From NCBI GenBank assembly GCA_963769305.1, contig CAVYLJ010000041.1:30082-62081 (forward strand): DNA of 32,000 bases, given 5' to 3'. This DNA comes from an uncultured delta proteobacterium (GTDB lineage Bacteria > Desulfobacterota > RBG-13-43-22). Under the pieces are notes generated by a model. It worked only from the letters and a program-made list of their open reading frames with translations, was not told the origin of the DNA and made no database searches. Made by a program: the position numbers and the translations under genes. Shown here one piece after another: positions 3,188 through 25,362 of the stretch (its first letter is position 1; the number at the start of each line of letters is the position of its first letter).

Positions 3188-5474
3188 TTAATATTCAATC
3201 AGACCTTTTAATGAAAAAGAAAGGTAGAATGCGGTATTATCCGGTGCGCTCATATAAGAGACTTTTATCCCCCAACACTGTTTGTTGTAAGCCAAAGAGG
3301 CGGTGGTTGCAAAATTTTTATTCTGGTCAAGGGAATACTGTTCTAAAAGATTGGCCGTCCAAATGGGGCTGATTTTCCAGGATATGTCGGCGTTGACCTG
3401 TCTGAACTGGTCCCCTGAATAGGCCAGATATTCCAAATAAGCCCGATTGCCTTTTTTGTCCATCAAAGTCATGGTGTGACTTTGGGTATCCAGTCGGCCG
3501 GTGTAGGGAGACCAGCCCACACTGGATCGTAAGTTCAAATTAGGGCCGGGAATTAATTCCATTTCAGCGGTGACGTCGGAAAAGGGTTGTGACGTGACCG
3601 ATGTGGTAGTCGTGGTGTTGCCGGTGACCGTCGTTGTCGTAGCGGAGCTCCCCGTCGTAATCGTAGTAGGGATAATGTTGGTGGGGATAGTGGTGCCAGT
3701 GGTGGTGGTAGTAATGGTCCCTTCTCGGGCTACATTAATGTCATAAGTTTGGTATAATTTTAGAGTAAGAAAATCCCGGTAGCCGAAGAGGTCCTCCCCT
3801 TGTGGACTCTTCCCCTGCAACGACTTTGAGGTGAAGGTTTGGATCAAATAATAGGTCAGGGTATTGGTCTTGAAAATAGGCGAAACAAAACTGGGGAGTG
3901 AGTCCTGATTAATTTCCGGGATATAATTATAGATGATTTGAGGGCGGATGGTATGTTTTATTTTTTCACCCTCTTCTCCCGAAAGGTTAAAGACCTTTTG
4001 AAAATCGGTAGACGTATCCAGCCGGAAGTTGGGAACCGACCGGTTTCCCCAAGCATCAACGGAATCACTCTGTCTGTTGCTGACCTGATAGAGATCCTCG
4101 GTTATTCCCAGAGAGGCTTCCGCATTGAGATAATTTCTGAATTTCTGCGGATAGTAGAAAGTCGGAGTCAATTCCAACACCTGCCCGCGATCCAGTTCAT
4201 TGCGATAAAAATAATTATAGGAAGAACCCCATTGCAGAAAAAAATTTTTCCCGAATTCCTGTTTAATACTGTCTAAACGGGCAAAAGGTAGCTGGTTCAA
4301 GACATTATTGGTATTGGTTGGATCCTGATAATAGGTGAACCCGCCGGTAAAATTGGTAGTCCCGAAGCTCTTGTTTAATACAGCGGCATTTCTGCGTAAA
4401 ATTTGGGTTTCATCGTCCAGATCCCGATTAAACTCGCTTAAAAAGGTCCGTCGATTACGGTCCAGGCCAAAGGGGTTGCCCTTGAATTCCTTCAGATAAT
4501 CCTGGTCGCTGACCCAATCCAGATCCATTTTCAAATCCACGCCAGACGGCAGTCCCTGATTCATCTTGGAACGGAACCAATACCGTTCCGAATAGGGTTG
4601 ACTGATATTTCCTTTATTAAATTCTTCCTGGCTCACCCCGTCATGGGGGAGATAATCCATCATCAGGGTCCCTTTGGATTGGGCGGAAAGGATATATCGA
4701 TATTCAAGCCCTTGCATAAACCCTCGGCGACTCATCATATCTTCATAAAAGGTGGCATCGGAACTTTTAGAGATAGCCCAATAGAAAGGTAAATTCAGGG
4801 TGAAACCGTCACGGTCTGGATTGACCGAATTCAGGCATCAAAATGCCGCTCTGCCGGTCTTTCTTGGCGGGAAAAACCATATAAGGGGAGTATAAAACAG
4901 GAAAATCCCTTATACGCAATGATGGACTCCAGGCCTGTCCATAACCCTCGACCGTGACCACAATTTCTTTGGCCTTTATCTCCCAGGGGACATTTTCCCC
5001 GTCACAGGAGGTTACCGTTCCATTGAGGACCCGATAGCTTCCTTCCCCGATTTTATAAATCTCTTCACCGGTAACGTAAAAATGGTTCTCTTTTAAGAAA
5101 AGATGTCCTTTTTGTAGTTCCCCGTTTTTTGTCTTTAAATCGACCGTCAGTTCCTCCCCCTGCATTTCATCCCCGGATGAAGTAAATTTCACATGTCCCC
5201 GGGCCTTGGCAATCATGGTTTGGCGGTCTACCTCGGCATAATCACACTTTAGGACCTGAGTGCCCTGTTTGATGATCACATCTCCGATGGCCGTATAGGT
5301 ATCGGTGTCTTGATCATAGGTCAATTCTCGGGCCTCAATATCCCAGGGTTCTTTGGCGGTTCCCGTTCCCGCACCCGTGGGGATCAGGCCCTCTGCCGCT
5401 TTAGAAGATAGGGGAAACCCCAGGATGATCATTGCAAAAACCAGGATCCCCAGGGTCCAGAACCGGTTGGGCAT
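3188..5474 (-). pseudogene. lptD: LPS-assembly outer membrane protein LptD (OstA), split by one +1 frame break near 4809-4826 as sequenced
   Basis: ORF 4809-5522 has a signal peptide (MPNRFWTLGILVFAMIILGFPLSSKA from the ATG at 5474) and an OstA-like N-terminal domain ending PEFGQS. The +1 frame continues DRDGFTLNLPFYWAISKSSDATFYEDMMSRRGFMQGLEYRY into the beta-barrel ORF 3188-4738. Confidence 0.85.
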
Positions 5475-5623
5475 ATTCAACTCCCTAACTCTGAGATAAA
5501 ACCTGCACCGACTTTTTAGCACATCTTATTCCCTATTACAACAGATAACCGCCTAATATATCTGGCCCCCCACCTTTCAATAACTCCCAGAGGGTGACCA
5601 TATCAGCCATGGTTAACATTCAT

Positions 5624-7141
5624 TTAAGTTCGAGTCTTAACCCCTTCTCTTTCCCACCAGGCTCGAGCCTCGCCTACAATAAAAAGTGAACCGGTGATTA
5701 GGATCAAATCCCCTGGTTCGGCTTCCTGCCTGGCTCGTTGTATGGCTGTGGGAATATTTTTTGAAATTTGGCAGGGCCGACTTTCCCCATCGACTAAAGG
5801 TCTTAAGGTCTCCGGGTCGGCTGAGCGATCGTATTCGGCCCGGGTCAAAAAGACCATATGGGCCAAGGGGATTATGACCTTGAATGTCTGTTCGATAGCC
5901 TTATCCTTCATCATCCCGATGATCAGGAAAAGTCTTTTATAAGAAAACACCCGGGGAAGATTCTGGGCTAAGGTCTTCATGGCCCCGGGATTATGGGCCC
6001 CATCCAGGACGATCCAGGGCCTTTCGGATAAAACCTCCATCCTCCCCGGCCAGGCCACCTTCAACAGCCCTTCCCGAAGGGCTTCTTCGTTAACCGGAAA
6101 TTTTCTCTTTAAACAACCGATAACCGTCAGGGCCAGACCGGCGTTCCGGATCTGATGATCCCCAAGAAGGGCGGGGCGAAGCCCCTTTAATTTCGGATTT
6201 CGGATTGCGGGTTGAGGAGTCGGGGTATAGTTCGGAGTTTTGAGTTCGGAGTTCGGAGCAACCAAGGTCTGATCTCTACCCCCTCGTCCCGCGTCCTTCG
6301 TCCAACTTGAATCCAGCAACTTGCATTTTATATCCTCTTCGACTCCGAACACCGAACTCCGAACTCCGAACTGTTGTAACATTCCGCAATCCGCAATCGG
6401 CAACCCGAAATAACTGAACTCCCCATTCCTCAACTTTCTCGTCTTAAAATCCCTTCCGGCCAGTAACATGGGGGCCTGTTTTTCACGGCAGACCTGTTCC
6501 AGGAGACGTTGGACTTTTTTTTGTTCGACCCCGGTTACTAAGGGGACTTGCGGTTTAATAATCCCGGCTTTTTCCAGGGCGATCTTCTCCAGGGTTTTCC
6601 CGAGATATTCCTGATGCTCCAAGGAAACGGTGGTGATGACCGTTATCAGGGGTTCGATGATATTGGTGGAGTCCAGCCTTCCTCCGAGTCCGACTTCCAT
6701 AATAGCCAAGTCCACTTTTTCCCGATAGAAATAGAGTAAGGCCATGGCCGTAACAAACTCAAAGAAGGTCGGGGGTTCGTTAGGATCGGTCTTTCTCTTG
6801 ATCTCTTTAACCAACTCCAGGGTTTTCTCTTTGGAGATCATCCGGCCGTTGATCTGGAACCTTTCCCGGAAATCGATCAGATGGGGGGAGGTGAACAAAC
6901 CAACCTTATACCGGGCTTGACTGTATATGGAGGACAACATGGCCGCTACGGATCCCTTTCCATTGGAACCGGCCACATGGATCATTCGGAGGTGCTTTTC
7001 GGGGTTATTAAAGGCTCGGAGCAGATTTTCCGTTTTAGATAAGCCGAATTTCATACCGAATTTTTGTAAATTGTACAGATAAGACAGGCCCAGATCATAT
7101 TCCAGGTCATAACTCAGACGCTCAAAAGGATGGCCGGCCAT
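5624..7141 (-). CDS. folC: Folylpolyglutamate synthase / dihydrofolate synthase FolC carrying a roughly 73-aa in-frame insertion
   Basis: Mur-ligase P-loop HVAGSNGKGSVAAML, and LLGDHQIRNAGLAL in the C-terminal domain. The track ORF extends to 7330 and overlaps uvrD. The ATG at 7141 follows GGGGAG at a workable spacing; the ATG at 7150 is an alternative start. Confidence 0.9.
   Translation of the reverse strand: MAGHPFERLSYDLEYDLGLSYLYNLQKFGMKFGLSKTENLLRAFNNPEKHLRMIHVAGSNGKGSVAAMLSSIYSQARYKVGLFTSPHLIDFRERFQINGRMISKEKTLELVKEIKRKTDPNEPPTFFEFVTAMALLYFYREKVDLAIMEVGLGGRLDSTNIIEPLITVITTVSLEHQEYLGKTLEKIALEKAGIIKPQVPLVTGVEQKKVQRLLEQVCREKQAPMLLAGRDFKTRKLRNGEFSYFGLPIADCGMLQQFGVRSSVFGVEEDIKCKLLDSSWTKDAGRGGRDQTLVAPNSELKTPNYTPTPQPAIRNPKLKGLRPALLGDHQIRNAGLALTVIGCLKRKFPVNEEALREGLLKVAWPGRMEVLSERPWIVLDGAHNPGAMKTLAQNLPRVFSYKRLFLIIGMMKDKAIEQTFKVIIPLAHMVFLTRAEYDRSADPETLRPLVDGESRPCQISKNIPTAIQRARQEAEPGDLILITGSLFIVGEARAWWEREGVKTRT
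6191..6410. repeat. MITE-like palindromic element (68-nt heptamer-repeat arms, 84-nt centre) embedded in frame in folC
   Basis: Left arm 6191-6258 is tttcggatttcggattgcgggttgagg...agttcggagttttgagttcggagttcggag. Right arm 6343-6410 is ctccgaacaccgaactccgaactccgaact...attccgcaatccgcaatcggcaacccgaaa. About 52 of 68 positions are complementary. The folC frame has no stop across the element. Confidence 0.8.
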
Positions 7142-7142
7142 A

Positions 7143-9260
7143 TTAGACATCTCCCCTTTCCAGGCGGGCATAATCCAGGTGAAGGACCTTGGAGCCGTAG
7201 CGTTTAAAAAGGACGCGAACCTTTCTCTCCCGCGGGGGTTCCTGGATAACCCCATTGCCGAAAAGAGGGTGGAAGACCTTGGTCCCTTTTGAAAACCCGC
7301 TATCCTCTTCTTTTCGGATTTCATGAACATGGTCCGAATCCACCCGGGGCGGATGATTCGGGCCCGGTCTTCCTTGCCGGGCTAATATCTCTTCGGGAAT
7401 ATCGGCGATGAAGTGGCAGAGGTCGTTTTTCTGCCACCCCCCATCCCTTTGGGAGAGGGTGACCGGACAGGTCATAAAAAGTCTTTCTTTGGCCCGGGTG
7501 ATGGCCACATAAAGGAGCCGCCTTTCTTCTTCCATTTCCTCCGAGTCCATCTCGGCATGGGTGGAAGGAAACCGGCCTTCCGCCAGCCAGATGATGAAAA
7601 CGATCCTCCACTCCAGGCCCTTGGCCGAATGGACGGTAGACAGGGTCAACCGGTCCTTTTCAAGATCCTCATGTTCCTCATAGACCTCAAGGCTCAGGTC
7701 CCCCAACAAGGCCTCCGTTTCGGTGTAATTATAACTAACCCGGATGATTTCTTCGATCTCTTTCTGCCGGCGCTGCGGCTCTTCATACAGGCCGGGCATA
7801 AGATTTTTGTAGTAACCCCAGATCAATTCCAGGGCCTCGGTCGGAGTCTGGAGGGGTTGATCGACCAGGGCCTGGAAGAGGGCTGAAAAATCCACAAGTT
7901 GGGATTTAAGGCGGGGATATTGGGAAAGGCATTCCAGGCGTGAAGCCCAGTCCGGGCAGACGGCCATCCGCTCGACGATCTCCTGGGCCCTTTTGGGTCC
8001 CAACCCATCAAGAAGTTTCAGGATTCTTTCCCAGGCCAGTACGTCTTTGGGATTGTGGGCTGCTTTTAAGTACGACAGGAGGTCTTTAATATGGGCCCCC
8101 TCCACAAAGCGACGGCCCCCGTATTTTTTAAATGGGATGCCCTGCTTTTGAAGGGACACTTCCAGGTTAAAGGAATGATGGCCGGCCCGAAACAGGACGG
8201 CCATTTCCTGCCAGGGGATCCCCTGTCTATGAAATTCCTGAAGTTGCTGGGTCACATACTGGGATTGGGACTCTTCGTAAGGCACTTCGAGACAACGGGG
8301 CGGTTCCCCTGTTTTAATGCGGGTAAAGAGGCATTTACTATATCGCTCCTTAGAATAACTGATGACCTTATTGGCCAGGTTCAGGATCGGCTGGGAGCTG
8401 CGGAAGTTTTCCTCTAATTTGATCAGACGGGTTCCGGGATATTGGTTTGGAAAGTCCAGGATATTTTTAAAGTGGGCGCCCCGAAACCCGTAAATCGACT
8501 GGGAATCATCCCCGACTACCATGACATTTCCTCGGGCCAAATGGCGGACCATTTCGGCTTGGAGCAGATTGGTATCCTGGTATTCATCCACTAAAACATA
8601 CCGATAATAAGAGGCCAATTTTTGGGCTACCTGTGCTTCCTGCCTGAAAAGTTGCAGGCAATGACTCAGGAGATCGTCATAATCCAGTAAGCCGTGCTCT
8701 TTTTTGAAGGCTTCATACTCTTGATTCAGGTCCTTGAGCTGGGATGGAGATGGACCCGTTTCCAAAAATGAATCATAAAGCCCTTCTTCGAAGACCTGGC
8801 CCCGGTTGACGATACGACTCAAGAGCTCCAGGAATTCCTTTTTATCAGGCCGATCCTTGTTTTTATCCCAACCTTTCTGTTTGATGATCTTTCCGACGAT
8901 CTCTTCACTGTCTTTCCGGTCCAACACGGTCAACGGACTCCGGAGACCGATCGCCGCCCCATAAATCCTTAGGATTTTATAGGCCAAGGAATGAAACGTC
9001 CCGCCGGCCACTTCCTGACAGGACCGCTCCAGCATGAGTTCCACCCGGCGGAGCATCTCCTGGGAGGCCTTGCGGGTAAAGGTCAACAAAAGGATCCTCT
9101 CCGGTGGGATCCCATTTTCAACCAGCCAGGCCACCCGATAGACCAGGGTGCGGGTCTTTCCGCTTCCGGCCCCGGCAATGACCAAGGTAGGCCCGTCCGG
9201 TGAAAAGACCGCCTCCTGCTGGGCCTTGGTTAGATTTTTTTGATAATCGATTTTCCCCAT
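7143..9260 (-). CDS. UvrD/PcrA/Rep-family ATP-dependent DNA helicase
   Basis: Motif I is VIAGAGSGKTRTLVYR and motif II is VLVDEYQDTN. The C-terminal tail (GTKVFHPLFGNGVIQE...VLFKRYGSKVLHLDYARL) is typical of PcrA/UvrD. The 705-aa ORF is intact. Confidence 0.9.
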   Translation of the reverse strand: MGKIDYQKNLTKAQQEAVFSPDGPTLVIAGAGSGKTRTLVYRVAWLVENGIPPERILLLTFTRKASQEMLRRVELMLERSCQEVAGGTFHSLAYKILRIYGAAIGLRSPLTVLDRKDSEEIVGKIIKQKGWDKNKDRPDKKEFLELLSRIVNRGQVFEEGLYDSFLETGPSPSQLKDLNQEYEAFKKEHGLLDYDDLLSHCLQLFRQEAQVAQKLASYYRYVLVDEYQDTNLLQAEMVRHLARGNVMVVGDDSQSIYGFRGAHFKNILDFPNQYPGTRLIKLEENFRSSQPILNLANKVISYSKERYSKCLFTRIKTGEPPRCLEVPYEESQSQYVTQQLQEFHRQGIPWQEMAVLFRAGHHSFNLEVSLQKQGIPFKKYGGRRFVEGAHIKDLLSYLKAAHNPKDVLAWERILKLLDGLGPKRAQEIVERMAVCPDWASRLECLSQYPRLKSQLVDFSALFQALVDQPLQTPTEALELIWGYYKNLMPGLYEEPQRRQKEIEEIIRVSYNYTETEALLGDLSLEVYEEHEDLEKDRLTLSTVHSAKGLEWRIVFIIWLAEGRFPSTHAEMDSEEMEEERRLLYVAITRAKERLFMTCPVTLSQRDGGWQKNDLCHFIADIPEEILARQGRPGPNHPPRVDSDHVHEIRKEEDSGFSKGTKVFHPLFGNGVIQEPPRERKVRVLFKRYGSKVLHLDYARLERGDV

Positions 9261-9420: not shown

Positions 9421-9449
9421 TTGACAACATCCCGCTGTAATCTTATAGT
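9421..9449 (+). promoter_or_regulatory. Sigma70-like promoter for the yedE-tusA-dsrE cluster
   Basis: TTGACA (9421-9426), 17-nt spacer, TATAGT (9444-9449), about 100 nt upstream of the yedE ATG and divergent from uvrD. Confidence 0.55.
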
Positions 9450-9549: not shown

Positions 9550-10737
9550 ATGGCCGAGGAAAGCATCTTAAAGACAAAATTTCGGCAAGGATACAAGGCC
9601 CTTTTTTATCAACAATGGCCGCCCCTGACCGGGGGGGTATTATTAGGGCTCAGTAGCATCTTGATCGTTGCCTGGTCCAGACCGTGGGGTATCGTCGGAG
9701 GAATCCGTAATTGGGCTGACTGGCTTTTTTACGGCCTGGGTTTCTTTCCGGAACGCCCGGAGAACGCCTTCTTTTATTCTTCCTCGATTATGGATATCGG
9801 ATTTTTATTAGGGGCCTTCGGAGCGGCCCTCTTAGCCAAGGAGTTCGCCCTGAGAAAAACACCGGCCTTGGAGATCATAAAAGGGCTGGCCGGCGGGGTC
9901 TTCATGGGAATCGGCTCGGCCCTGGCCATGGGTTGCAATGTCGGGGCTTTTTATACCCCCTTGATCAACCTTTCGGCCAGCGGTTTCCCGATGCTGGTCG
10001 GACTGACCATCGGCGCTTTTATCGGTTTAAAATATCTTTTATGGGAACTGGAAAAATTCCCTCCCCCATCCGGATTTACACCCACGGCCTCTTTAGGAAA
10101 AAAAAGGGTTGATTGGAAGATTATCCAACCTTATTTAGGCACCCTGGTCTTTATTGGTTTGATCGTCTGGGCTTACTGGTATTCCGGAAAAGCCTATACG
10201 GAAATCGGCGGCCTCCTGCTCTTCGGTGCCGCTTTCGGAATCATCCTGCAGCGCTGCCGCTTTTGTTTTGTCCGAGCCTTTCGAGACCCTTTTATGACCG
10301 GAGAGGCGACCATCGCCAAGGCCATCGCCGTCAGTATTATCATCGGCGCCATAGGCGTAGCGGTTTTGAAATGGAGCGGATTTCGTCAGGAAAGCCTCTA
10401 TGTCATCCCGGCCTTCTGGTGGGGGTCGCTGGTGGGTGGCACCATATTCGGGATCGGAATGGTCATCGCCGGCGGATGCGGAAGCGGAACCTTGTGGCGG
10501 GTATCCGAAGGACAGCTTAAGCTCTGGGCGGCCCTTTTTACCTTTGCGACGACCAATTCCTTGATGAACGTCCTTCTCCGAACCACCGGCTGGCGTCAAA
10601 AATTGGGGAAGGCGGTATTTTTGCCCCAGACCTTCGGCTGGGGCGGAAGTATCCTCTTCATTGCCTTTATCCTGCTGATATGGTATCTATTAGTAACCTG
10701 GAATGAAGAGAGTAATAAATTCACAGTAGGATTATAA
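9550..10737 (+). CDS. YedE/YeeE-family sulfur (thiosulfate) transporter
   Basis: Polytopic membrane protein with two conserved Cys-loop motifs, GSALAMGCNVGAF and VIAGGCGSGTLWR, as in YeeE/YedE. It is followed by a TusA-like gene. Confidence 0.85.
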   Translation: MAEESILKTKFRQGYKALFYQQWPPLTGGVLLGLSSILIVAWSRPWGIVGGIRNWADWLFYGLGFFPERPENAFFYSSSIMDIGFLLGAFGAALLAKEFALRKTPALEIIKGLAGGVFMGIGSALAMGCNVGAFYTPLINLSASGFPMLVGLTIGAFIGLKYLLWELEKFPPPSGFTPTASLGKKRVDWKIIQPYLGTLVFIGLIVWAYWYSGKAYTEIGGLLLFGAAFGIILQRCRFCFVRAFRDPFMTGEATIAKAIAVSIIIGAIGVAVLKWSGFRQESLYVIPAFWWGSLVGGTIFGIGMVIAGGCGSGTLWRVSEGQLKLWAALFTFATTNSLMNVLLRTTGWRQKLGKAVFLPQTFGWGGSILFIAFILLIWYLLVTWNEESNKFTVGL

Positions 10738-10742
10738 AAACC

Positions 10743-10815
10743 GGTATAAGGTGCAGGGCATAGGGTTTAAGGAATGCCCCTTGCCTTGGACCTTATACCT
10801 TAAACCTTGCACCTT
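10743..10815. repeat. Intercistronic hairpin built from NNNNAGG / CCTNNNN heptamers (yedE-tusA spacer)
   Basis: Left arm is ggtataaggtgcagggcatagggtttaagg. Right arm is ccttggaccttataccttaaaccttgcacctt. The heptads tataagg, tgcaagg and tttaagg occur on both arms as complements. The right arm abuts the tusA RBS GGAAGGAGG. Confidence 0.65.
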
Positions 10816-10832
10816 GGAAGGAGGAAATCATC

Positions 10833-11069
10833 ATGGAAGATATTAAACCCGATCAAACCTTGGATGCCCGGGGACTCAGTTGCCCCATGCCGGTTTTAAA
10901 AACCAAAAAGGCGATTGAGAATCTCAAGTCCGGAGAAATCCTGGAGGTCTTAGGAACCGATCCGGGGACCAGAAACGACATGCCCGGCTGGGCCAACCGC
11001 ACCGGGAACATTTACCTCGGGGAGAAAGAAGACCAAGGCTTTATTCGTTTTTACGTCAAGAAAAAGTAA
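10833..11069 (+). CDS. tusA: TusA/SirA-family sulfurtransferase
   Basis: 78 aa. LDARGLSCPMPVLKTKKAIENL carries the CPxP active-site motif. A strong RBS precedes the gene. Confidence 0.9.
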   Translation: MEDIKPDQTLDARGLSCPMPVLKTKKAIENLKSGEILEVLGTDPGTRNDMPGWANRTGNIYLGEKEDQGFIRFYVKKK

Positions 11070-11091
11070 AATGTGAAATAAGGAGCAGGGC

Positions 11092-11400
11092 ATGGCTGAA
11101 AAATTGGGGATTTTCGTTTCCTCCGATAAAAACCTCCGGCATGTGATCGGAATCACCAAAGCCGCCGAAGCGGCCGGCAAGGAAGTAGTCCTTTTTTTTA
11201 CCCACAAAGGGGTCCTGCTGACCCAGGTGCCGGAGTTCAAGGAGCTGATCGGCCACGGAAAAAAATCCTTGTGTAATGTGAGTTATGAATCCAAAGGATT
11301 GAAAGGGAAGCCAGCCCCTGGAATAGCAGAAAAAGATTTCGGCACTCAGGCCCGCCACGGGGAGATGATCGACGAAGTGGACCGTTATATCGTCCTGTAA
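11092..11400 (+). CDS. DsrE/DsrF-like family protein
   Basis: 102 aa. KLGIFVSSDKNLRHVIGITKAAEAAGKEVVLFFTHKGV has the DsrE-fold pattern. It lies directly after tusA. The family call is made by eye. Confidence 0.6.
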   Translation: MAEKLGIFVSSDKNLRHVIGITKAAEAAGKEVVLFFTHKGVLLTQVPEFKELIGHGKKSLCNVSYESKGLKGKPAPGIAEKDFGTQARHGEMIDEVDRYIVL

Positions 11401-11411
11401 AGGAGGAATCG

Positions 11412-11696
11412 ATGAAAAAGGTGGCCTTTTTGGTCAAAGACAAGGAGGAAGACTGGGAAGGGCTTCGCTCAACCCTGGGTTTGGCCGTAGAGAATAACTC
11501 GGTTTATTTCTTTGTCCTTGATCATGAAGTGGAAATGACCGAGCCTTTTCGCGAAAATCTGGATTGGGTCCTGGATATGGAGGGTGAATTATATTCCAAT
11601 GTTCCGGCCAATGTGGAGAAGCACGGGTTCCAACCCATCACCTATGAGGAATTGGGCGAGAAATTGAAAGAAATGGATTTTATCGTCCCCTTTTAA
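11412..11696 (+). CDS. Conserved hypothetical protein, fourth gene of the sulfur-trafficking cluster (possibly a DsrE-fold relative)
   Basis: 94-aa ORF with RBS AGGAGG and 11-nt spacing from the preceding stop. KKVAFLVKDKEEDWEGLRSTLGLAVENNSVYFFVLD resembles the DsrE/F/H fold pattern. Confidence 0.55.
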   Translation: MKKVAFLVKDKEEDWEGLRSTLGLAVENNSVYFFVLDHEVEMTEPFRENLDWVLDMEGELYSNVPANVEKHGFQPITYEELGEKLKEMDFIVPF

Positions 11697-11707
11697 AATA
11701 AAAATAA

Positions 11708-11823
11708 CGGTTCGAGGTCCCAGGTACAAGGGGGATCAGATTCTCGTATTCACGCGTTGTAGGCCCCGGCATGTGATTTTTCTTTAAACCTTGTACCTCG
11801 TACCTTGAACCTTGTACCTTGAG
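11708..11823. repeat. Intercistronic hairpin built from TNCNAGG / CCTNGNA heptamers
   Basis: Left arm is cggttcgaggtcccaggtacaagggg. Right arm is ccttgtacctcgtaccttgaaccttgtaccttgag. About 20 of 25 arm positions are complementary, and the central loop is about 60 nt. Confidence 0.65.
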
Positions 11824-11836
11824 AATATGAGGTGCC

Positions 11837-12011
11837 ATGAAACTCTTACACATATATCGTTCCAAGCCAACCGAAGAAGTCCTTAAATTAGCCAAAATCC
11901 TTTCCGAGGGAAACGAGGCGGACAACTTTTTCTCTTTATGAAGGAGAGGTGGATTACGCCAAATTGGTGGAGCTTATCTTTTCCCATGATAAAGTCGTCA
12001 GTTGGTGGTAA
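11837..12011 (+). pseudogene. Small conserved hypothetical protein (about 58 aa), fifth gene of the cluster, with one +1 frame break at the T5 run near 11927-11938
   Basis: ATG at 11837 after GAGGTG gives MKLLHIYRSKPTEEVLKLAKILSEGNEADNFFSL then a stop. The +1 frame continues YEGEVDYAKLVELIFSHDKVVSWW to a stop at 12009-12011. Confidence 0.5.
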
Positions 12012-12156: not shown

Positions 12157-12723
12157 ATGCCTGAAAAAAACTTTTTAATAATCGGTCTGATGTTTATTCT
12201 GCTGATGGGATTGGGGATTCATGAATCCCAAGCCCAAGGGTCTCCATCCGGCCAAGCCTATTCCGTGAACCCGGAACTCTGCGCCCTCATGCTTCGCAAA
12301 GGGAAAGAATCCTTTACTCGGGGAAGGTACACCGAGGCCAAAGAATTGTTCCGTAAGGCCATACTGGCCGATCCCAACTCCCAAAAAGCCTGGTCCTATT
12401 ACGATCTGGCCCAGATGTATTCCGTAGCCGAGCAATTTAAAAATCACGGCCGCATCGTCCAATCCAGCGCCCCGCCCGCTGAACAAACCGCGGAAATGGC
12501 CCAACCCCAGACCACGGCCGCCCCGCCTCCGGCCATGAAAGAAAAAGGCAAAGGGATTCCGGCAAAAAAAGAAAAACCGGCAATCAGAAAAAAGGCCTCA
12601 GCCCCGAAAGAAACTCTCAAGGGGGAACCCTCCAAACCCGGAGCACCAAACCCTGTTCCAGCCCCCCCGGCCCCGACACCCGCTCCGGGAGGGTTTAAGA
12701 TTTTAAAGGATGAAGGTTGTTAA
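12157..12723 (+). CDS. Secreted protein: signal peptide, one TPR-like helical unit, long Pro/Ala/Lys-rich tail ending ...FKILKDEGC
   Basis: Signal peptide MPEKNFLIIGLMFILLMGLGIHESQAQG. TPR-like RGRYTEAKELFRKAILADPNSQKAWSYYDLAQMY. The low-complexity tail is about 85 aa, and Cys is the last residue before TAA. Confidence 0.7.
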   Translation: MPEKNFLIIGLMFILLMGLGIHESQAQGSPSGQAYSVNPELCALMLRKGKESFTRGRYTEAKELFRKAILADPNSQKAWSYYDLAQMYSVAEQFKNHGRIVQSSAPPAEQTAEMAQPQTTAAPPPAMKEKGKGIPAKKEKPAIRKKASAPKETLKGEPSKPGAPNPVPAPPAPTPAPGGFKILKDEGC

Positions 12724-12837: not shown

Positions 12838-13413
12838 ATGAAAAGATTAATAATTTTGACCTCGGCGTTGTTTTTGCTTCTGGCCTTCGCAGGTTTCGGA
12901 ATGGCCCAGGATGTTTCCAAAGGAGAAAGTGCTTTTAAGGCGGATCTGGAAAAGGCTATTCCACCCGATAGAATTAAGACCATTGCCGACCTGCACAAAG
13001 TCTGGATGGATGTTCAAGCGGGAAAAAGCAAGGCCATCCTGATCGACGTCCGCACCAATCCTGAATTTGATGCCGGCCATATCGAGGGCACGAACCTCGT
13101 GACGTTGGCCCACGTATATACCTTGCCTAAACGTTTTCCGGATGCCAATGCGGAATACTGGATCTGGTGCCGAACCGACCATCGTTCCGCTTATTTCACC
13201 GCCATGATGTACAGATACGGCTATAAAAATGTCTATTGGGCCAAAGGCGGAGTCGTCGGCTGGATGAAAGCGGGATACCCTTTGGTAAACCGTTTCATGG
13301 GCCGCTTTAAAGTGGAAGAATACGGCCATCCTTTTAAGGAAAAAGGTCCGATTAAAGACAGAGAGTTTGTCGACTATAAATCCTATTATAAGGAATGCAT
13401 TCCTCAGGAATAG
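12838..13413 (+). CDS. Periplasmic single-domain rhodanese (sulfurtransferase)
   Basis: Signal peptide MKRLIILTSALFLLLAFAGFGMAQD from the ATG at 12838 after GGAGG. ILIDVRTNPEFDAGHIEGTNLV plus active-site loop CRTDHRS. Confidence 0.85.
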   Translation: MKRLIILTSALFLLLAFAGFGMAQDVSKGESAFKADLEKAIPPDRIKTIADLHKVWMDVQAGKSKAILIDVRTNPEFDAGHIEGTNLVTLAHVYTLPKRFPDANAEYWIWCRTDHRSAYFTAMMYRYGYKNVYWAKGGVVGWMKAGYPLVNRFMGRFKVEEYGHPFKEKGPIKDREFVDYKSYYKECIPQE

Positions 13414-13435
13414 CCTATCGGAACCTGTTCGGTTA

Positions 13436-13470
13436 AAGGAGGGGTTAATTTCCGCCCCTCCTTTCTTTTT
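13436..13470 (+). terminator. Rho-independent terminator after the rhodanese gene
   Basis: Stem AAGGAGGGG / CCCCTCCTT with a 10-nt loop, followed by TCTTTTT. Confidence 0.8.
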
Positions 13471-13655: not shown

Positions 13656-14732
13656 ATGAACGAATCCGTTTCCTGTGAATGTATTCAAACAACCGGTGGT
13701 AAGTTAGATCCAATAAGCCTGAGGAAAAAACTGGTTATTTTGCCGGTGTCCTTTATAGCCTGGTGGATTATCTACCACCAACTGCCCATGGTAACCGGGT
13801 GGGTGACCTATCATTTGTTCAGCCTTGGCAGAGGTACTCATTTGGGCGAGGCTGTCGCCTTTTTTCTTTATGATGTTCCCAAGGTCCTGATGCTCCTGAT
13901 CCTGGTCGTTTTTGGAGTCGGTCTTTTGCGCTCTTTCTTTACCCCGGAAAAGACCAGGGCCATTTTGGCCGGTAAAAAGGAATCGGTCGGAAATGTCCTG
14001 GCCGCCGGCCTGGGAATCGCCACCCCTTTCTGCACCTGCTCGGCCATCCCCCTCTTTATCGGCTTTGTCGAGGCCGGGGTACCCCTCGGGGTAACGCTGT
14101 CTTTTTTGATCTCCGCCCCCATGGTCAATGAGATCGCCCTGGTCCTTTTGTTCGGCCTTTTCGGATGGAAAGTGGCCGCCCTCTACCTATCCACCGGACT
14201 GGTAATCGCCATGGTCAGCGGCTGGGTCATCGGCCGGTTGCACATGGAGAACCATATCGAAGATTGGGTCAGGGAAATCAGGACCAACGGCTCCCCGATG
14301 TTCATGGAAACACTAAACTGGTCGGGTCGGATCGATTATGCCTGGCAGGCGGTCAAGGATATCGTCGGCAAGGTCTGGATCTATGTTGTGGCCGGTATCG
14401 CCGTCGGGGCGGCCATCCACGGCTACGTACCCGTCGGTTTTATGGCCTCCATCATGGGCAAAGAGGCCTGGTGGTCGGTTCCCTTGGCCGTCATGTTGGG
14501 GGTTCCCATGTATTCCAATGCCGCCGGGATCATCCCGATTGTTCAGGCCCTTCTGGAAAAAGGGGCGGCCCTGGGCACGGTGCTGGCCTTCATGATGGCG
14601 GTCATCGGACTCTCCTTGCCGGAAACCATCATCCTCCGAAAGGTCTTGAAACCACGGCTCATTGCCGTCTTTGTCGGCGTGGTGGCTACGGGCATTCTTC
14701 TGGTGGGTTTTCTCTTTAATGCCCTTCTGTAA
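13656..14732 (+). CDS. UPF0718/ArsP-like permease (predicted permease family with CxC motif)
   Basis: 358-aa polytopic protein. ATPFCTCSAIPLFIGFVEAGVPLGVTLSFLISAPMVNE matches the conserved Cys-containing loop of the ArsP/YraQ-type permease family. Confidence 0.8.
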   Translation: MNESVSCECIQTTGGKLDPISLRKKLVILPVSFIAWWIIYHQLPMVTGWVTYHLFSLGRGTHLGEAVAFFLYDVPKVLMLLILVVFGVGLLRSFFTPEKTRAILAGKKESVGNVLAAGLGIATPFCTCSAIPLFIGFVEAGVPLGVTLSFLISAPMVNEIALVLLFGLFGWKVAALYLSTGLVIAMVSGWVIGRLHMENHIEDWVREIRTNGSPMFMETLNWSGRIDYAWQAVKDIVGKVWIYVVAGIAVGAAIHGYVPVGFMASIMGKEAWWSVPLAVMLGVPMYSNAAGIIPIVQALLEKGAALGTVLAFMMAVIGLSLPETIILRKVLKPRLIAVFVGVVATGILLVGFLFNALL

Positions 14733-14780
14733 AGTTTTTTCTTGACTTTAAGAGGAAACAATATAACTATATAATCCATT

Positions 14781-15116
14781 ATGGAAAAATCAGGAAAGAT
14801 GAATCAAAAAATATTGGAAGGCCAGGCCTCGATCCTCAAGGCCCTGGGTCAGCCCACCCGACTGCAAATTCTGGAATTGCTTAAGGAAGGCGAACGGTGC
14901 GTCTGTGAAATTTTCCCGGCCATCTCCCAGGAACAGGCCAATGTCTCCAAGCATCTTTCCATCTTGAAACAGGTCGGGATTCTGGAGTCCCGGAAAGAGG
15001 GCCTGCGTATCCTTTACCGGATAAAAACCCCTGAAATTTTGAACTTGCTGAGCGGGGTTTCCAAGCTCTTAAAAGCCCAGGCCCAGGAGCAGCATAAGTT
15101 AATGACTCGTTTATAA
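14781..15116 (+). CDS. ArsR/SmtB-family metalloregulator
   Basis: ILKALGQPTRLQILELLKEGERCVCEI...ANVSKHLSILKQVGILESRKEGLRILYRI is a winged HTH with a CVC metal(loid) site. The start could instead be the ATG at 14799. Confidence 0.9.
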   Translation: MEKSGKMNQKILEGQASILKALGQPTRLQILELLKEGERCVCEIFPAISQEQANVSKHLSILKQVGILESRKEGLRILYRIKTPEILNLLSGVSKLLKAQAQEQHKLMTRL

Positions 15117-15129
15117 AATTTTTTTTGAG

Positions 15130-15154
15130 TATATGATTACTAATTATTCATATA
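15130..15154. promoter_or_regulatory. ArsR/SmtB-type operator-like inverted repeat ATATGA-N11-TCATAT upstream of the CDF gene
   Basis: tatatgattactaattattcatata, 18 nt upstream of the CDF ATG. It resembles the imperfect TGA..TCA repeats bound by SmtB/CzrA-type repressors. Confidence 0.55.
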
Positions 15155-15171
15155 GTTAATGAGTATTTTTT

Positions 15172-16113
15172 ATGGAACCCCATCATCATAATCATGACTC
15201 CGAAGCCTCCTGGGGTAAACGCCTGTTCGTCACCATGGTGATGAACCTGATTATCCCGGCTGTTCAGATCGTGGCCGGCATCATGGCCGGCAGTATGGCC
15301 CTGATCAGCGATGCCCTGCACAACCTGAGTGATTTCGCTTCCATCCTGATCAGCTATATGGCCTTAAAAATCGGAAAACGCGGTCCCACGCTTTCCCTGA
15401 CCTTCGGCTATAAACGGGTGGAGGTCATGGCCGCAGTCTTCAATACGGCCCTCCTCTTCGGGGCCGCCCTGTTCATCGCTGTGGAAGGCTGGATTCGTTT
15501 AAAAAATCCGGTTTTGATTCGGGGAAACATGGTCATTTGGGCCGCCCTCCTGGGTGTTATCGCCAATGGCATATCGACCTGGATGCTCCACGCCGGGGCC
15601 AAAGAAAACCTCAACATGCGCGGGGCCTTTCTCCATATGTTGACCGATGCCCTGACTTCCCTCGGAGTGGCCGTACTGGGCGTGGTCTGGCTGCTCCGTC
15701 CCTGGTACTGGCTTGATCCCATCGTATCCTGGGTTATCGTAGCCCTGATCCTTTACAGCGGCTGGGGTATTTTAAAACAAGCCCTGCTCATCTTGATGAA
15801 CGCCACCCCGCCGGGTATCGACCTGGAGGCCATACAAAAAGAAGTAGTATCCCTGGGGGGGATAGAGGATCTTCATCATCTTCATGTCTGGAACCCCTCC
15901 TCCGGGACCATCGCCCTGGCGGCCCATGTCATCGTGCCGGACCAGATGCTTTGCCAGGTGGACGAGTTGGCTAAAAAAGTGCGGGACCTGCTCTTATCTA
16001 AATTCAACATCAATCATCCCATCCTTCAATTTGAGAGCAAGTCTTATGAACCCGTGGATTTACTATGCACGATATGTAAGGACAACCATTCTTCAGAAAC
16101 AAGTGCTCAGTAA
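15172..16113 (+). CDS. czcD: Cation diffusion facilitator (CzcD/ZitB-like Zn/Co/Cd exporter)
   Basis: His-rich N-terminus MEPHHHNHD. TM2 motif ALISDALHNLSDF and TM5 motif AFLHMLTDALTSLGV. Cytoplasmic C-terminal domain with HHLHVW. Confidence 0.9.
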   Translation: MEPHHHNHDSEASWGKRLFVTMVMNLIIPAVQIVAGIMAGSMALISDALHNLSDFASILISYMALKIGKRGPTLSLTFGYKRVEVMAAVFNTALLFGAALFIAVEGWIRLKNPVLIRGNMVIWAALLGVIANGISTWMLHAGAKENLNMRGAFLHMLTDALTSLGVAVLGVVWLLRPWYWLDPIVSWVIVALILYSGWGILKQALLILMNATPPGIDLEAIQKEVVSLGGIEDLHHLHVWNPSSGTIALAAHVIVPDQMLCQVDELAKKVRDLLLSKFNINHPILQFESKSYEPVDLLCTICKDNHSSETSAQ

Positions 16114-16125
16114 GGAGGCCTTATT

Positions 16126-16359
16126 ATGGAAATCAAAATACTCGGACCCGGATGTCCCAGATGCGGGCAAACGGAAAAAATCGTCAAGGAGACTGTAGCC
16201 GAGGCCGGCGTGGAGGCCACGGTTGAAAAAATTACCGATGTGATGCAAATCATGACCTATCGAGTCATGGGCACCCCGGCGGTGGTCGTGGACGGCCAGG
16301 TGATGTCGGTGGGCAAGGTCCCCAAGAAAAAAGAGATTCTTGCCTGGATAAAAAAATAG
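16126..16359 (+). CDS. Small thioredoxin-fold protein (redox-active disulfide protein 2 / Thioredoxin_3 type)
   Basis: 77 aa. MEIKILGPGCPRCGQTEKIV carries a CxxC motif, and ...GTPAVVVDGQ follows. In my recollection this family commonly accompanies ArsR plus the UPF0718 permease. Confidence 0.85.
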   Translation: MEIKILGPGCPRCGQTEKIVKETVAEAGVEATVEKITDVMQIMTYRVMGTPAVVVDGQVMSVGKVPKKKEILAWIKK

Positions 16360-16391
16360 CCCAGGTAAAGCCGATACAAAAAGGAAAATCT

Positions 16392-17315
16392 ATGGCTCCC
16401 GGCAAACCACTATCCGTTAAACTGTTTTTCATCCTGCCGTTCCTACTCCTGTCTTTATTGGTCTTATTTGACGCCCAGGCCGGTCAAACCATCGATGAGC
16501 TTTATCCTGGACTGGCTTCCGACTCCCTTAAGTCAGCAAAACTCACCAGGCTGCCTAAAGGAACCCTTTTGACCTCCAGGAGTCTGATCATAAAAGAATC
16601 GGAACTTACCAGGGAGATCAACCAATCGGACCCGGCATTACGTAAACAACTTATTAGAAATGCCTTTTATCTTCTGGAAAAAATGGCCACCAGTCGGTTG
16701 GTCCTTCAGGAAGCCCATAAAGCAGGATATAAACTGGGAGATGAAGAAGATAAGACAATCACGAAGTTTCTCTCTGAAAAGGTAAAGCCCGGCACCATAT
16801 CCGATGAGGAATTAAGGAATTTTTATACCCAGAACAAAGGGATGATCGGGAGTGCTTCTTTTGAAGAGACTCGTGACCTGTTGAAGTATCTTTTAGCACA
16901 ACAAAAAATCCAGGAGGCCCAGCGTCATTACGTCCAAACTCTCTTTCAGCAAGCATCCATCCAGCTTAATGAAGACTGGGTAAAAAAACAAAGCACCCTT
17001 TCCCGAGACAACCCGGTAGACCGGGCCAGGACGTCCGGCAAACCGAGCTTGATCGACTTTGGATCAACCGGCTGCGGGCCCTGTGACATGATGACCCCCA
17101 TATTAGCCGACCTGGAGAAAAAATATAAAGACAAGTTAAACGTCCTTTTCGTCCATGTGAACCAGGAAGTGATTTTAACGGCTCGTTTCGGGATCAAATA
17201 CATACCGGTTCAGGTGTTCTTTGACAAAAACGGCCGGGAGGTTTTCAGGCATACCGGCTTTTTCCCCCAAACGGAGATCGAAAAGCAACTGGCCCGGATG
17301 GGCATCGCCAACTGA
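16392..17315 (+). CDS. Secreted two-domain protein: helical N-terminal domain (SurA/PpiD-N-like by eye) fused to a thioredoxin domain (CGPC)
   Basis: Signal peptide MAPGKPLSVKLFFILPFLLLSLLVLFDAQAG. C-terminal domain LIDFGSTGCGPCDMMTPILADLEKKYKDKLNVLFVHV...IPVQVFFDKNGREVFRHTGF. Confidence 0.75.
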   Translation: MAPGKPLSVKLFFILPFLLLSLLVLFDAQAGQTIDELYPGLASDSLKSAKLTRLPKGTLLTSRSLIIKESELTREINQSDPALRKQLIRNAFYLLEKMATSRLVLQEAHKAGYKLGDEEDKTITKFLSEKVKPGTISDEELRNFYTQNKGMIGSASFEETRDLLKYLLAQQKIQEAQRHYVQTLFQQASIQLNEDWVKKQSTLSRDNPVDRARTSGKPSLIDFGSTGCGPCDMMTPILADLEKKYKDKLNVLFVHVNQEVILTARFGIKYIPVQVFFDKNGREVFRHTGFFPQTEIEKQLARMGIAN

Positions 17316-17319
17316 TCCG

Positions 17320-18239
17320 ATGTCATCTTTAACTTTTAGAACCTTTCCTTTCCTCCTCCTTAGTGCCTTGATGGTTTTTTTGAACAGGGACCTTCAAGCC
17401 CAAAGTTCAAAGACCATAGCAGAGAATTATCCCTTCCTGGGTGCTTACGCCCTGCCCGATGCGGTGTTGAGCAAATTAAAACCCGGCATCCTTTTAGTTT
17501 CCGATAAAGTCATCATAAAAGAATCGGAGGTCCTGTCCGAGATTCGCCGATCCGATCAGGCCATCCGTGGTCAATTACGAAAAAATGCCTTTTATGTCCT
17601 GGAAAAGATGGCGGCCGATCGGCTCCTTCTGCGGGAAGCTTTGGCCCATGGAGAACAAAGGCAAGGCCCGGCAAAAGAAATCGTTGCCCGTTATCTCGAT
17701 CAAAAATTTAAAGACCTGACCGTATCCGAGGAAGAACTCCGGCAGTACTACCAGGACAACAAACATATGCTCGGCGATCCCGACCTGGATCCTCTCAAGG
17801 AATCCCTGCGGGACTTCCTGAAAGAACAGAAAAAACAAAAGGCCATTCGGCATTATATTATAACCCTTGGGCAAAGAAGGCTCATCCGGGTCAATGAAGA
17901 CTGGGTAAAAAAACAGAACATCCTGGCCAAAGAAAACCCGGTTGATCGTCTCAGGATGGCCGGAAAACCGGCCTTGGTCCTTTTCGGGGCCATGGGCGAG
18001 TGCCCCTGTGATATGGTCTCTCCCATATCTGATCGATCTGGGCGAAAAATATAAAAGCCGGATTAGAGGTCCTTATTATTTCCCTGCGTGAAGAAAGGAT
18101 CCTGGCAGACCGGTATGGGGTGAAAACCATCCCTGATCTTATTTTTTTCGACCGAAAGGGCCGGGAAATATTTCGCCACGTGGGGTTTCTGCCTGAAAGG
18201 GCAATCGAAGAAAAACTGAAGCAATTCGGACTGATTTGA
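17320..18239 (+). pseudogene. Paralog of 16392-17315 with two +1 frame breaks (near 18025 and 18065) and a degenerate redox motif (ECPC instead of CGPC)
   Basis: MSSLTFRTFPFLLLSALMVFLNRDLQAQ..., and the domain order is colinear with the upstream paralog. Frame 1 runs to CDMVSPI, frame 2 reads LIDLGEKYKSRI, and frame 3 reads EVLIISLREERILADRYGVKTIPDLIFFDRKGREIFRHVGFLPERAIEEKLKQFGLI. Confidence 0.7.
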
Positions 18240-18257
18240 AAGGAAGGAAAATTAAAA

Positions 18258-18646
18258 ATGAACAACTGGCTCTTATCGAAAAATCGGGGTTGTGCTCCTG
18301 ATCGGATTTTTATTTTTGGTGGGAGCCCAACCATCCTGGGCCGGCAGCTTATAAAGAGGTCCCGGTCAAAGGCATGGTAACCCTGGTTGACCTGGGGGCC
18401 AATGCCTGCATTCCCTGCAAGATGATGGCACCCATCATGACCAAGCTGGAGAAGGATTATCAGGGCAAGGCGGCCGTCGTTTTTATTGACGTCTGGAAGT
18501 TCCCGGAACAGGCCAAACCTTTCAATATTCAGGTCATACCGACCCAGATTTTCTATGATAAAACCGGCAAAGAAGTCTTCCGTCATGAAGGGTTTATGAG
18601 CGAGAAAGATATTGTCAGCCAATTAAAAAAGATGGGGGTCAAATAA
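18258..18646 (+). pseudogene. Short periplasmic TlpA/ResA-like thioredoxin, with two +1 frame breaks in the signal-peptide region as sequenced
   Basis: ATG at 18258 gives MNNWLLSK (frame A). Frame B reads KIGVVLLIGFLFLVGAQPSWAG. Frame C reads AAYKEVPVKGMVTLVDLGANACIPCKMMAPIMTKLEKDY..., which is track ORF 18374-18646. Confidence 0.7.
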
Positions 18647-18670
18647 TCTTTAAGGTCAGGTGAGGTTTCA

Positions 18671-19375
18671 ATGCTGGAAAATATTTTTCTGACCGTCAAT
18701 GACTGGCTTATCGGGGAACCCTACATCGCCGCCCTGGGGGCCTTTTTCTGGGGCATGATCAGCGTGGTCTTCAGCCCCTGCCATCTGGCCTCCATCCCGT
18801 TGATCGTGGCCTATGTGGGCGGGCAGGAAAAGACGGTCCTGGCCCGGCAGGCCGGATACTACTCCGTGGCCTTTACCTCCGGACTGTTTATCACCATCGC
18901 CCTGATCGGCATCATCTGTTCCCTTCTGGGACGTATGCTGGGCGATGTGGGCAACTACTGGCAGATCCTTATCGGGTTGATCCTGATCTGGGTGGCCCTG
19001 GGGATGCTGGGGGTCGAGAAATGTTCCATGTCCGGGAGCTTATTATACCGGCTGAATTTAAAAGGCATCTTTGGGGCCTTTGTCCTGGGTCTGGCCTATG
19101 GGGTGCTTTCCGGGTCCTGCACCTTCGGCTTTATCGCCCCTATCCTGGCCATCATCACAGTTCAAGAAAAGGTGGCCACCGGGATCCTGTTGATTTTGCT
19201 GTTCGCCGTCGGCCATTGCCTGCCCATCGTGATCGCCGGCAGTTCGACGGCCGCCGTCCGTAAAGTCATCGAAAACCAGTCCTGGCAGACCGGCGGCCAG
19301 TGGTTCCGCCGCGGGGCCGGGGTGCTCATCGTGTTGCTGGGCCTTTATTTTATTGTCAATCCTTTTATTACCTAA
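18671..19375 (+). CDS. ccdA: CcdA/DsbD-type transmembrane thiol-disulfide electron transporter
   Basis: Six-TM protein with the two conserved membrane Cys (VFSPCHLASIPL and LSGSCTFGFIAP). Confidence 0.85.
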   Translation: MLENIFLTVNDWLIGEPYIAALGAFFWGMISVVFSPCHLASIPLIVAYVGGQEKTVLARQAGYYSVAFTSGLFITIALIGIICSLLGRMLGDVGNYWQILIGLILIWVALGMLGVEKCSMSGSLLYRLNLKGIFGAFVLGLAYGVLSGSCTFGFIAPILAIITVQEKVATGILLILLFAVGHCLPIVIAGSSTAAVRKVIENQSWQTGGQWFRRGAGVLIVLLGLYFIVNPFIT

Positions 19376-20590: not shown

Positions 20591-20607
20591 AAGGCAAATA
20601 ATTTTTC

Positions 20608-25200: not shown

Positions 25201-25360
25201 TGGCATGGCCTACAACTTCCACCTGGTTGTTGGTTACGTCGGGAAAAGCGTCAATGGGGAGCTTGATATAGGAATAGACTCCAAATGCCACGAGAAGCAG
25301 CGAGAAGACTATGACCGTCCCTTTCTGTCTGAGCACTAAGGCAATGATTCTTTCCAACAT
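22246..25360 (-). pseudogene. Heavy-metal-efflux RND transporter (CusA/CzcA family), with one +1 frame break near 25123-25132 as sequenced
   Basis: ORF 25067-25360 (MLERIIALVLRQKGTVIVF...PIEMSMRGLP) continues in the +1 frame as VKQMRSVTKFGLSLVTIVFEDNVDIYFARQ. The TM4 motif SIGMIIDATIIQVEN is typical of HME-RND pumps. Confidence 0.9.
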
Positions 25361-25362
25361 AA

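Follow-up and report, generated by a model that had tools for sequence, protein, structure and literature searches.

The YTD cluster, defined by Umezawa et al. 2020 and summarized in passages of PMC9751629, PMC9676032 and PMC12998232, is made up of a yedE-related gene, tusA, a dsrE-like gene and the genes of two conserved hypothetical proteins (CHPs), chp1 and chp2. The published definition allows two to three CHPs, with chp3 being optional. A 32-kb stretch of contig CAVYLJ010000041.1 from an uncultured Desulfobacterota lineage (the window; all coordinates are positions within it) carries the same five genes at 9550-12011, and this locus is thus an instance of that known cluster. Its features are as follows.

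9421-9449, + strand: promoter-like site, TTGACA-17-TATAGT, about 100 nt 5' of yedE, matching 11 of 12 consensus positions
9550-10737, + strand: yedE/yeeE-like membrane protein, a putative sulfur channel, 395 amino acids (aa), Pfam PF04143 Sulf_transp, E = 6e-53
10833-11069, + strand: sulfur-carrier gene tusA, 78 aa, CPxP motif with Cys17, Pfam PF01206, E = 1e-25
11092-11400, + strand: dsrE type II (dsrE-like), 102 aa, predicted active-site Cys61 (codon 11272-11274)
11412-11696, + strand: CHP1, or dsrF type II, 94 aa, no cysteine, matching the published chp1
11837-12011, + strand: CHP2, or dsrH type II, with a +1 frameshift; the first part is at 11837-11941 and the remainder in the next frame

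The closest biochemically described system is found in cable bacteria. Plum-Jensen et al. (ISME J 2026; PMC13293266) describe DsrE-like, CHP1 and CHP2 as the three subunits of "DsrEFH type II". Recombinant subunits from Ca. Electronema aureum GS co-purify in a 1:1:1 ratio, TusA persulfide specifically loads Cys67 of DsrE in vitro, and sulfur passes from DsrE to DsrC in a unidirectional manner. Thiosulfate modified none of the recombinant cable-bacterial TusA, DsrEFH II and DsrC proteins in that study. The same authors find dsrEFH II in 985 genomes from 20 phyla, with reductive dsrAB alongside in 74%, and report it in only 25 of 63 cultured disproportionators and in many carriers that do not disproportionate. 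A second study (PMC13047784, 2026) reaches the same structural conclusion of a DsrEFH-like complex, but prefers a thiosulfate-based model. The initial annotation of this locus had considered the biochemistry of the cluster unresolved and the two small proteins to be without an assigned function, statements that are outdated now that a function was published in 2026. It had also pointed to the cluster's status as a candidate marker for sulfur disproportionation; published work does give it this status, but the 2026 work argues that it is not a specific marker.

Four intact open reading frames (ORFs) follow one another on the + strand at 9550-11696, encoding proteins of 395, 78, 102 and 94 aa. 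A scan for related YedE proteins with one genome per species collected 58 genome loci, of which about 45 contain the full set of five genes, and the individual cluster proteins each have tens to hundreds of homologues. Because the five genes recur jointly in so many loci, with many homologues of each protein, the five-gene cluster is far beyond chance. The nearest relatives are uncultured Thermodesulfobacteriota-type metagenome-assembled genomes (MAGs) with YedE identities of 88-89%, and the five-gene loci also include those of the cable bacteria Electrothrix and Electronema. Two layouts are seen among them: a colinear one, shared by this window with Desulfobaccales MAGs, Thermosulfurimonas and Thermodesulfatator, and one in which yedE is divergent from tusA-dsrE-chp1-chp2, found in the Desulfobulbales including cable bacteria. 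The window thus differs from the YTD cluster of the Desulfobulbales in having yedE on the same strand as tusA.

The CHPs can be matched directly to published references. By BLASTP, CHP1 of the window matches the chp1 reference of Novak et al. 2026 at E = 3e-15, and CHP2 matches the corresponding chp2 reference at E = 4e-19 once one base has been removed from its gene. No tblastn match to the chp3 reference was obtained in the window or in 139 loci. The YTD label given in the initial annotation is therefore sustained by gene content, gene order and the chp1 and chp2 matches, and the last two genes do have conserved homologues at this position, in 45 loci. Relative to the published cluster, the window lacks chp3, has two genes for exported proteins appended, and carries a chp2 that is frame-shifted as assembled.

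Several lines of evidence place the three small genes in DsrEFH type II. They are syntenic and adjoin tusA and yedE, as in the published definition. When used as phmmer queries, the three proteins retrieve Electrothrix and Electronema proteins (loci L045-L050) with E values of about 1e-20 for DsrE, 1e-12 for CHP1 and 1e-14 for CHP2; the cable-bacterial loci compared did not include E. aureum GS. Identity to the Electronema proteins is 44-45% for DsrE, 35-37% for CHP1 and 47-51% for CHP2. Cys61 is the sole invariant cysteine of the DsrE-like family across 45 homologues, and it aligns with Electronema Cys67, the residue loaded by TusA. The window subunits are thus direct homologues of those in the Electronema and Electrothrix loci, with the active cysteine conserved and the same neighbors, tusA and yedE. 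The window and cable-bacterial systems differ in that their concatenated identity is only about 42%, close to the 40% subtype boundary used in PMC13293266, and in subunit length: the window DsrE has 102 aa versus 110 in cable bacteria, and the window DsrF has 94 versus 115 and lacks the C-terminal PPPACA(D/E) tail of the cable-bacterial protein. The definition of DsrEFH type II also has all three subunit genes intact, and dsrH is not intact as assembled.

Domain models and structure prediction point in the same direction. The Pfam DsrE model (PF02635) matches the DsrE-like protein weakly (E = 0.0047; 17.5 bits versus a gathering threshold of 22.7), and 16 of 23 family members likewise match it below threshold. 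An AlphaFold2 model of this protein (pLDDT 92.5) has as its best PDB matches in Foldseek 2qs7 (E = 3.9e-4, TM-score 0.70) and 3pnx. CHP1, which has no match in Pfam or NCBIfam, whose exact sequence is absent from the records searched and which has homologues at the same position in 45 loci, also yields a high-scoring AlphaFold2 model (pLDDT 91.6), with 2pd2 (TM-score 0.71) and 3pnx (TM-score 0.69) as its top natural PDB matches in Foldseek. The structures 2qs7, 3pnx and 2pd2 all belong to the DsrE/DsrF family or are DsrE/F-like, and both the DsrE-like protein and CHP1 thus model as DsrE/DsrF folds. The initial annotation had assigned the 102-aa protein to the DsrE superfamily, and its modeled fold agrees. 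CHP2, after repair of its reading frame, weakly matches the TusB/DsrH model TIGR03011 (E = 0.0038; 17.3 bits versus a cut-off of 49.2). This match falls on the C-terminus of the model and is shared by 4 of 23 family members; one database source also labels a CHP2 homologue TusB/DsrH.

The canonical DsrEFH type I complex of Allochromatium vinosum (PDB 2HY5) and the E. coli TusBCD complex share with the window system the DsrE/F fold, as modeled for the DsrE-like protein and CHP1, one catalytic cysteine located on the E/D subunit, and a layout of three subunits downstream of TusA. They differ in showing no significant sequence similarity to the window proteins, which score below the relevant Pfam and TIGRFAM cut-offs, in the size of the H subunit (57 aa in the window versus 95 in TusB), and in that the genomic partner of type II is reductive dsrAB (PMC13293266). 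Profiles of the three small families returned nothing meaningful against PDB sequences (designed repeat proteins and haemagglutinin, with 2qs7 at only E = 0.11). Comparisons with E. coli TusD, TusC and TusB using hhalign were not significant, with short aligned pieces at the expected protein ends. These failed sequence-only comparisons agree with the published statement that the two DsrEFH types cannot be aligned by sequence. The locus belongs to DsrEFH type II, not type I.

The two upstream proteins carry conserved cysteines. In YedE, Cys129, Cys239 and Cys310 are invariant across 50 homologues, and Cys17 of TusA is conserved in 98% of 47 homologues. The best NCBIfam match of YedE is selen_YedE_FdhT (E = 7e-45; 153.7 bits versus a cut-off of 350), and the protein also matches the models of TsuA/YeeE (E = 4e-31 and 7e-29; 108.5 bits versus 400 and 101 bits versus 645), leaving the protein under the equivalog cut-offs for both selenium YedE/FdhT and TsuA. 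TusA scores 17.9 bits against TsuB/YeeD, for which the cut-off is 147.5, and also matches YedF models (47.6 bits versus a cut-off of 79). The YeeE/YeeD (TsuA/TsuB) system likewise combines a Sulf_transp membrane protein carrying conserved cysteines with a TusA-family partner. The window proteins differ from it in scoring far under the equivalog cut-offs, in having a longer YedE (395 aa) and in being coupled to DsrEFH II.

The fifth gene, dsrH, is interrupted in the sequence as given. The ORF at 11837-11941 encodes 34 aa and ends at a TGA, and the conserved C-terminal part continues in the +1 frame to 12011; the whole span of 175 nt is not a multiple of three. One extra base lies within AACTTTTTC (11924-11932), and its deletion yields a 57-aa protein for which the databases contain 67 relatives with 54-95% identity at 100% coverage, nearly all of them exactly 57 aa long. 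DNA alignments to L001 and to L140, the closest relative found (a 1.25-kb contig with an intact 57-codon gene), each show a single 1-nt gap at 11924-11932. The initial annotation had described a complete five-gene cluster ending in a protein of about 58 aa. All five genes are recognizable and four are intact, but the fifth is not a single ORF and becomes a conserved 57-aa protein only after removal of one base.

Other genes of the window are broken in a similar way. The lptD gene (3191-5522) is split between two frames at about 4815, whereas in the relative L051 it is uninterrupted over at least 688 aa, with a 1-nt difference at the junction. The first ~70 residues of an RND pump (22246-25400) lie in a different frame from the remainder, with the break at about 25100-25170, an HlyD-type membrane-fusion protein (25366-26600) is cut at profile position 172-176, with the break at 25689-25836, an MFS transporter (19451-20598) ends halfway through its profile, and a XerC/D-like gene (2339-2953) is also among those split or truncated relative to Pfam profiles. 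A tally of assembly errors against L051 would have required a nearly identical strain, and L051 was rejected for this use, its DNA identity being only about 90%. Because several other window genes are frame-broken, including the essential lptD, and because relatives of dsrH are intact at 57 aa, the extra base found in dsrH most likely arose in assembly, as a consensus indel.

Taken as a whole, the cluster very likely encodes a yedE-tusA-dsrEFH type II route that supplies the Dsr pathway with sulfane sulfur taken from outside the cytoplasmic membrane, with the break in dsrH being an artefact. The YedE-like protein, with its three invariant cysteines, would let reduced sulfur species cross the membrane, and Cys17 of TusA would accept the sulfur. 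TusA would then hand it to Cys61 of DsrE, held in a heterotrimer with the DsrF-like CHP1 and the DsrH-like CHP2, and DsrE would pass it to DsrC for oxidation by DsrAB. This last step may contribute either to the oxidation of sulfide or sulfur or to disproportionation, as its oxidative half. The basis for this route in the window is gene content, homology to the characterized cable-bacterial proteins, conserved cysteines and DsrE/F folds. Complex formation and transfer from TusA to DsrE to DsrC are taken from the published E. aureum in vitro work, and we infer the operation of the route in this organism and the nature of the transported species.

The principal alternative, favored in PMC13047784 and in the original YTD proposal, is that the cluster serves the import and decomposition of thiosulfate for disproportionation, not the oxidation of sulfane sulfur. 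Thiosulfate would be taken up by YedE/YeeE, bound and split by TusA/YeeD, and passed to a DsrEFH-like acceptor that releases sulfite and sulfide. That YedE resembles the models of TsuA/YeeE (E values of 4e-31 and 7e-29) fits this scheme, as does the published increase in abundance of YTD proteins in Desulfolithobacter, and of TusA in Dissulfuribacter, during thiosulfate disproportionation, along with the YeeE/YeeD biochemistry in the form in which PMC13047784 cites it. The same comparisons, however, leave the window proteins far under the TsuA and TsuB/YeeD cut-offs; thiosulfate did not modify the cable-bacterial TusA, DsrEFH II or DsrC; and dsrEFH II is carried by a minority of cultured disproportionators and by many organisms that do not disproportionate (PMC13293266). 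Thiosulfate decomposition is accordingly regarded as unlikely, if the most serious of the competing explanations. A role outside dissimilatory sulfur metabolism, either in selenium metabolism (YedE/FdhT with a YedF-like partner) or in tRNA thiolation (TusBCD-like), is suggested by the selen_YedE_FdhT match of YedE, the YedF matches of TusA and the weak TusB likeness of CHP2. It is very improbable: the scores are far under curated cut-offs (153.7 versus 350 and 47.6 versus 79 bits), there is no selD, tusE or mnmA nearby in the window, the relatives found are Desulfobacterota sulfur-cycle organisms, and 74% of the 985 carrier genomes have reductive dsrAB (PMC13293266).

The interruption of dsrH raises two further possibilities. 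The cluster could be decaying, with a real frameshift and loss of a working DsrEFH type II; the extra base is present in the sequence as given, and the dsrF-dsrH spacer also contains an insertion of ~82 nt that is missing from L140, the closest relative. On the other hand, the remaining four genes are intact and well conserved, each dsrH half shows 95% identity to intact relatives and bears no further damage, and the other broken genes of the window, among them an essential lptD that is intact in L051, form a pattern of consensus errors, which makes decay distinctly improbable. Alternatively, a programmed +1 ribosomal frameshift could allow expression of dsrH, with UUU UUC as the slippery sequence; once it had slipped by +1 on UUUUU, tRNA-Phe would be able to pair again. 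This is barely credible and was rejected, since none of the relatives needs such a mechanism: 67 homologues and 45 loci are single-frame, and the slip site has neither a stop nor a rare codon as a stimulus. The reading retained is an intact sulfane-sulfur route whose dsrH was broken in assembly.

In this lineage, the unit probably extends beyond the five genes to two exported proteins. The first is a short TPR-like protein, termed TPR-EGC here, and the second is a rhodanese.

12157-12723, + strand: exported TPR-like protein (TPR-EGC), 188 aa, the next gene after dsrH
12838-13413, + strand: exported single-domain rhodanese with active-site loop CRTDHRS, Pfam PF00581, E = 2e-12
13435-13464, + strand: terminator-like hairpin just 3' of the rhodanese gene, an 11-bp stem followed by a T run, as a consensus match only

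TPR-EGC is built from a hydrophobic N-terminus, a cysteine at position 42, a TPR-like domain, a variable linker rich in Pro, Ala and Lys, and a C-terminus that ends in KDEGC. A search of 1.84 billion representative proteins gave 84 matches at E ≤ 1e-10. Among the best 150 matches, a C-terminal Gly-Cys is present in 54 of the 71 short proteins (≤ 230 aa) and in 2 of the 79 long proteins of generic TPR type. All 39 members of one alignment share the terminal Gly-Cys, conservation of Cys42 reaches at least 90%, and the family C-terminus can be written (D/E)(D/E)EGC. A hydrophobic core at the N-terminus is found in most members (75 of 79 in one count and 48 of 54 in another). Database sources name these proteins only "hypothetical" or "TPR repeat protein". 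The possibility that TPR-EGC corresponds to the published CHP3 was rejected, there being no alignment at all with the chp3 reference.

The genomic link between TPR-EGC and yedE is observed directly. In six of the related genome loci a homologue comes after dsrH, and in three further loci a homologue precedes a yedE-like gene near which neither tusA nor dsrEFH is present. The family occurs in L001, L003, L004, L006, L007, L013, L026, L027 and L029, together with the metagenomic loci L060-L139; the loci of cable bacteria, Desulfobulbales and Thermodesulfobacteria lack it. The metagenomic loci come from a scan that used a 12-sequence subset of the alignment, with the TPR-EGC family as the sole query, and returned 80 loci. 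Among those with room downstream, the gene directly following TPR-EGC is yedE-like in 64 of 71, at a median distance of 24 nt; in 5 loci it is tusA, and in 1 it is dsrE. yedE, tusA, dsrE and chp1 all lie downstream of TPR-EGC in 20 of the 33 loci that have at least 3 kb of downstream sequence. Two variants of the arrangement are found in the metagenomic set. TPR-EGC is directly followed by tusA or dsrE, with no intervening yedE, in L131, L132, L133, L136, L092 and L072, and the order TPR-EGC, yedE, tusA, chp1, chp2, dsrE, with dsrE last, is present in L063, L074, L081, L084, L093, L096 and L100. No paper tying a TPR protein to YedE/YeeE in the context of YTD was found in the open-access literature, and, as far as the literature search went, the association is a new lead.

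SoxY is a periplasmic sulfur carrier with a C-terminal GGCGG arm. TPR-EGC resembles it in being an exported protein whose sole strictly conserved cysteine lies at the extreme C-terminus after a flexible segment. It differs from SoxY in having a TPR-like helical domain and an acidic tail, and its partner would be a membrane channel instead of SoxZ, SoxAX or SoxB. The likeness is only an analogy, with no homology expected. We tentatively infer a function for the protein: TPR-EGC may be an undescribed periplasmic partner of the YedE-like channel whose tail cysteine brings sulfane sulfur into the channel. The terminal cysteine, on its acidic flexible tail, would act as a swinging carrier that feeds YedE.

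The neighboring rhodanese may belong to the same process. Its ORF begins at a TTG at 12802, with the ATG at 12838 being the likelier start. A rhodanese gene follows TPR-EGC in L001, L003, L004 and L007 and precedes yedE in L013, with a hydrophobic N-terminus in all cases, and lies directly upstream of TPR-EGC in 9 of 53 metagenomic loci. A periplasmic rhodanese might load TPR-EGC, and the two could form a periplasmic sulfur-collecting module for YedE. There is no terminator-like site between dsrH and the TPR-EGC gene, and the promoter-like site at 9421-9449 and the terminator-like site at 13435-13464 bracket all seven genes. Both sites are consensus matches only, and the regional total of promoter-like sites is not above shuffle expectation. 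The extended unit is proposed because of these bracketing sites and the adjacency statistics of TPR-EGC and yedE.

Two spacers within the five-gene cluster contain long hairpins with a seven-nucleotide periodicity, and another heptad-periodic palindrome lies in a gene further upstream.

10743-10815, yedE-tusA spacer: long hairpin with heptad-periodic arms (AAGGnnn / CCTTnnA), minimum free energy (MFE) -41.9 kcal/mol, z = -5.1
11709-11811, dsrF-dsrH spacer: second heptad-periodic hairpin with 23-nt arms, MFE -51.3 kcal/mol, z = -4.4
6190-6411, inside the ORF at 5624-7330 (- strand): 220-nt palindrome with 69-nt arms of other heptads (AGTTCGG / ACTCCGA)

Both spacer hairpins fold well beyond shuffled controls, and the eight occurrences of the CCTTnnA heptad pattern in the window all fall in the two YTD spacers, with 0.29 expected. 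The first hairpin is kept in the two closest relatives among the genome loci, L001 (7190-7300) and L002, with 24 pairs of which 3 are compensatory, and is absent from L003. As for the second, L140 lacks the left arm and loop (~82 nt) and keeps only a CCTTGnn array (650-700). The dsrF-dsrH spacer is of variable length, 140 nt here versus 52 in L140, 71 in L001 and 23 in L003. Rfam gave no match at gathering thresholds in the whole window, and the spacer hairpins are therefore not a known RNA family.

The third palindrome is in frame and stop-free within a gene similar to Mur ligases and FolC, where it adds ~70 aa between the middle and C-terminal domains, and it is present in L051 too. Palindromic elements that insert into coding genes are known, and the palindrome at 6190-6411 resembles these. 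The possibility that the hairpins are a YTD-specific regulator is weakened by this third heptad-periodic palindrome. Because it sits in an unrelated ORF, the hairpins look like a genome-wide repeat class.

Downstream of the rhodanese, the block at 13656-19375 encodes an ArsP_1-type permease, an ArsR regulator, a CDF transporter, a thioredoxin-domain protein and a DsbD-type membrane protein. It looks like a set for metal or redox homeostasis and is probably a separate unit. An ArsR gene also lies 3' of the rhodanese in L003 and L004, and L003 has in addition a small thioredoxin-like ORF with a CxxC motif. Further along, a region of ~1.7 kb at 28300-30000, situated between two outer-membrane efflux genes, has no ORF above 100 aa and no Rfam match, and its G+C content is lowered (0.41 at 28-29 kb). 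No dsrAB, aprAB, sat or other dsr or apr gene is present within the 32-kb window.

The five-gene cluster itself adds little, since the system has already been catalogued in 985 genomes and its core biochemistry was published in 2026. It marks this uncultured Desulfobacterota lineage as a possible sulfur oxidizer or disproportionator, provided that the genome carries dsrAB and dsrC. The published YTD and DsrEFH II literature leaves unexplained how reduced sulfur gets to the YedE/YeeE channel and into it. TPR-EGC is a concrete candidate for this delivery step: it is small and exported, its terminal cysteine is invariant, and its gene adjoins yedE in most of the retrieved loci. If the proposed role is true, it would supply the missing outer half of the relay formed by YedE, TusA, DsrEFH II and DsrC.

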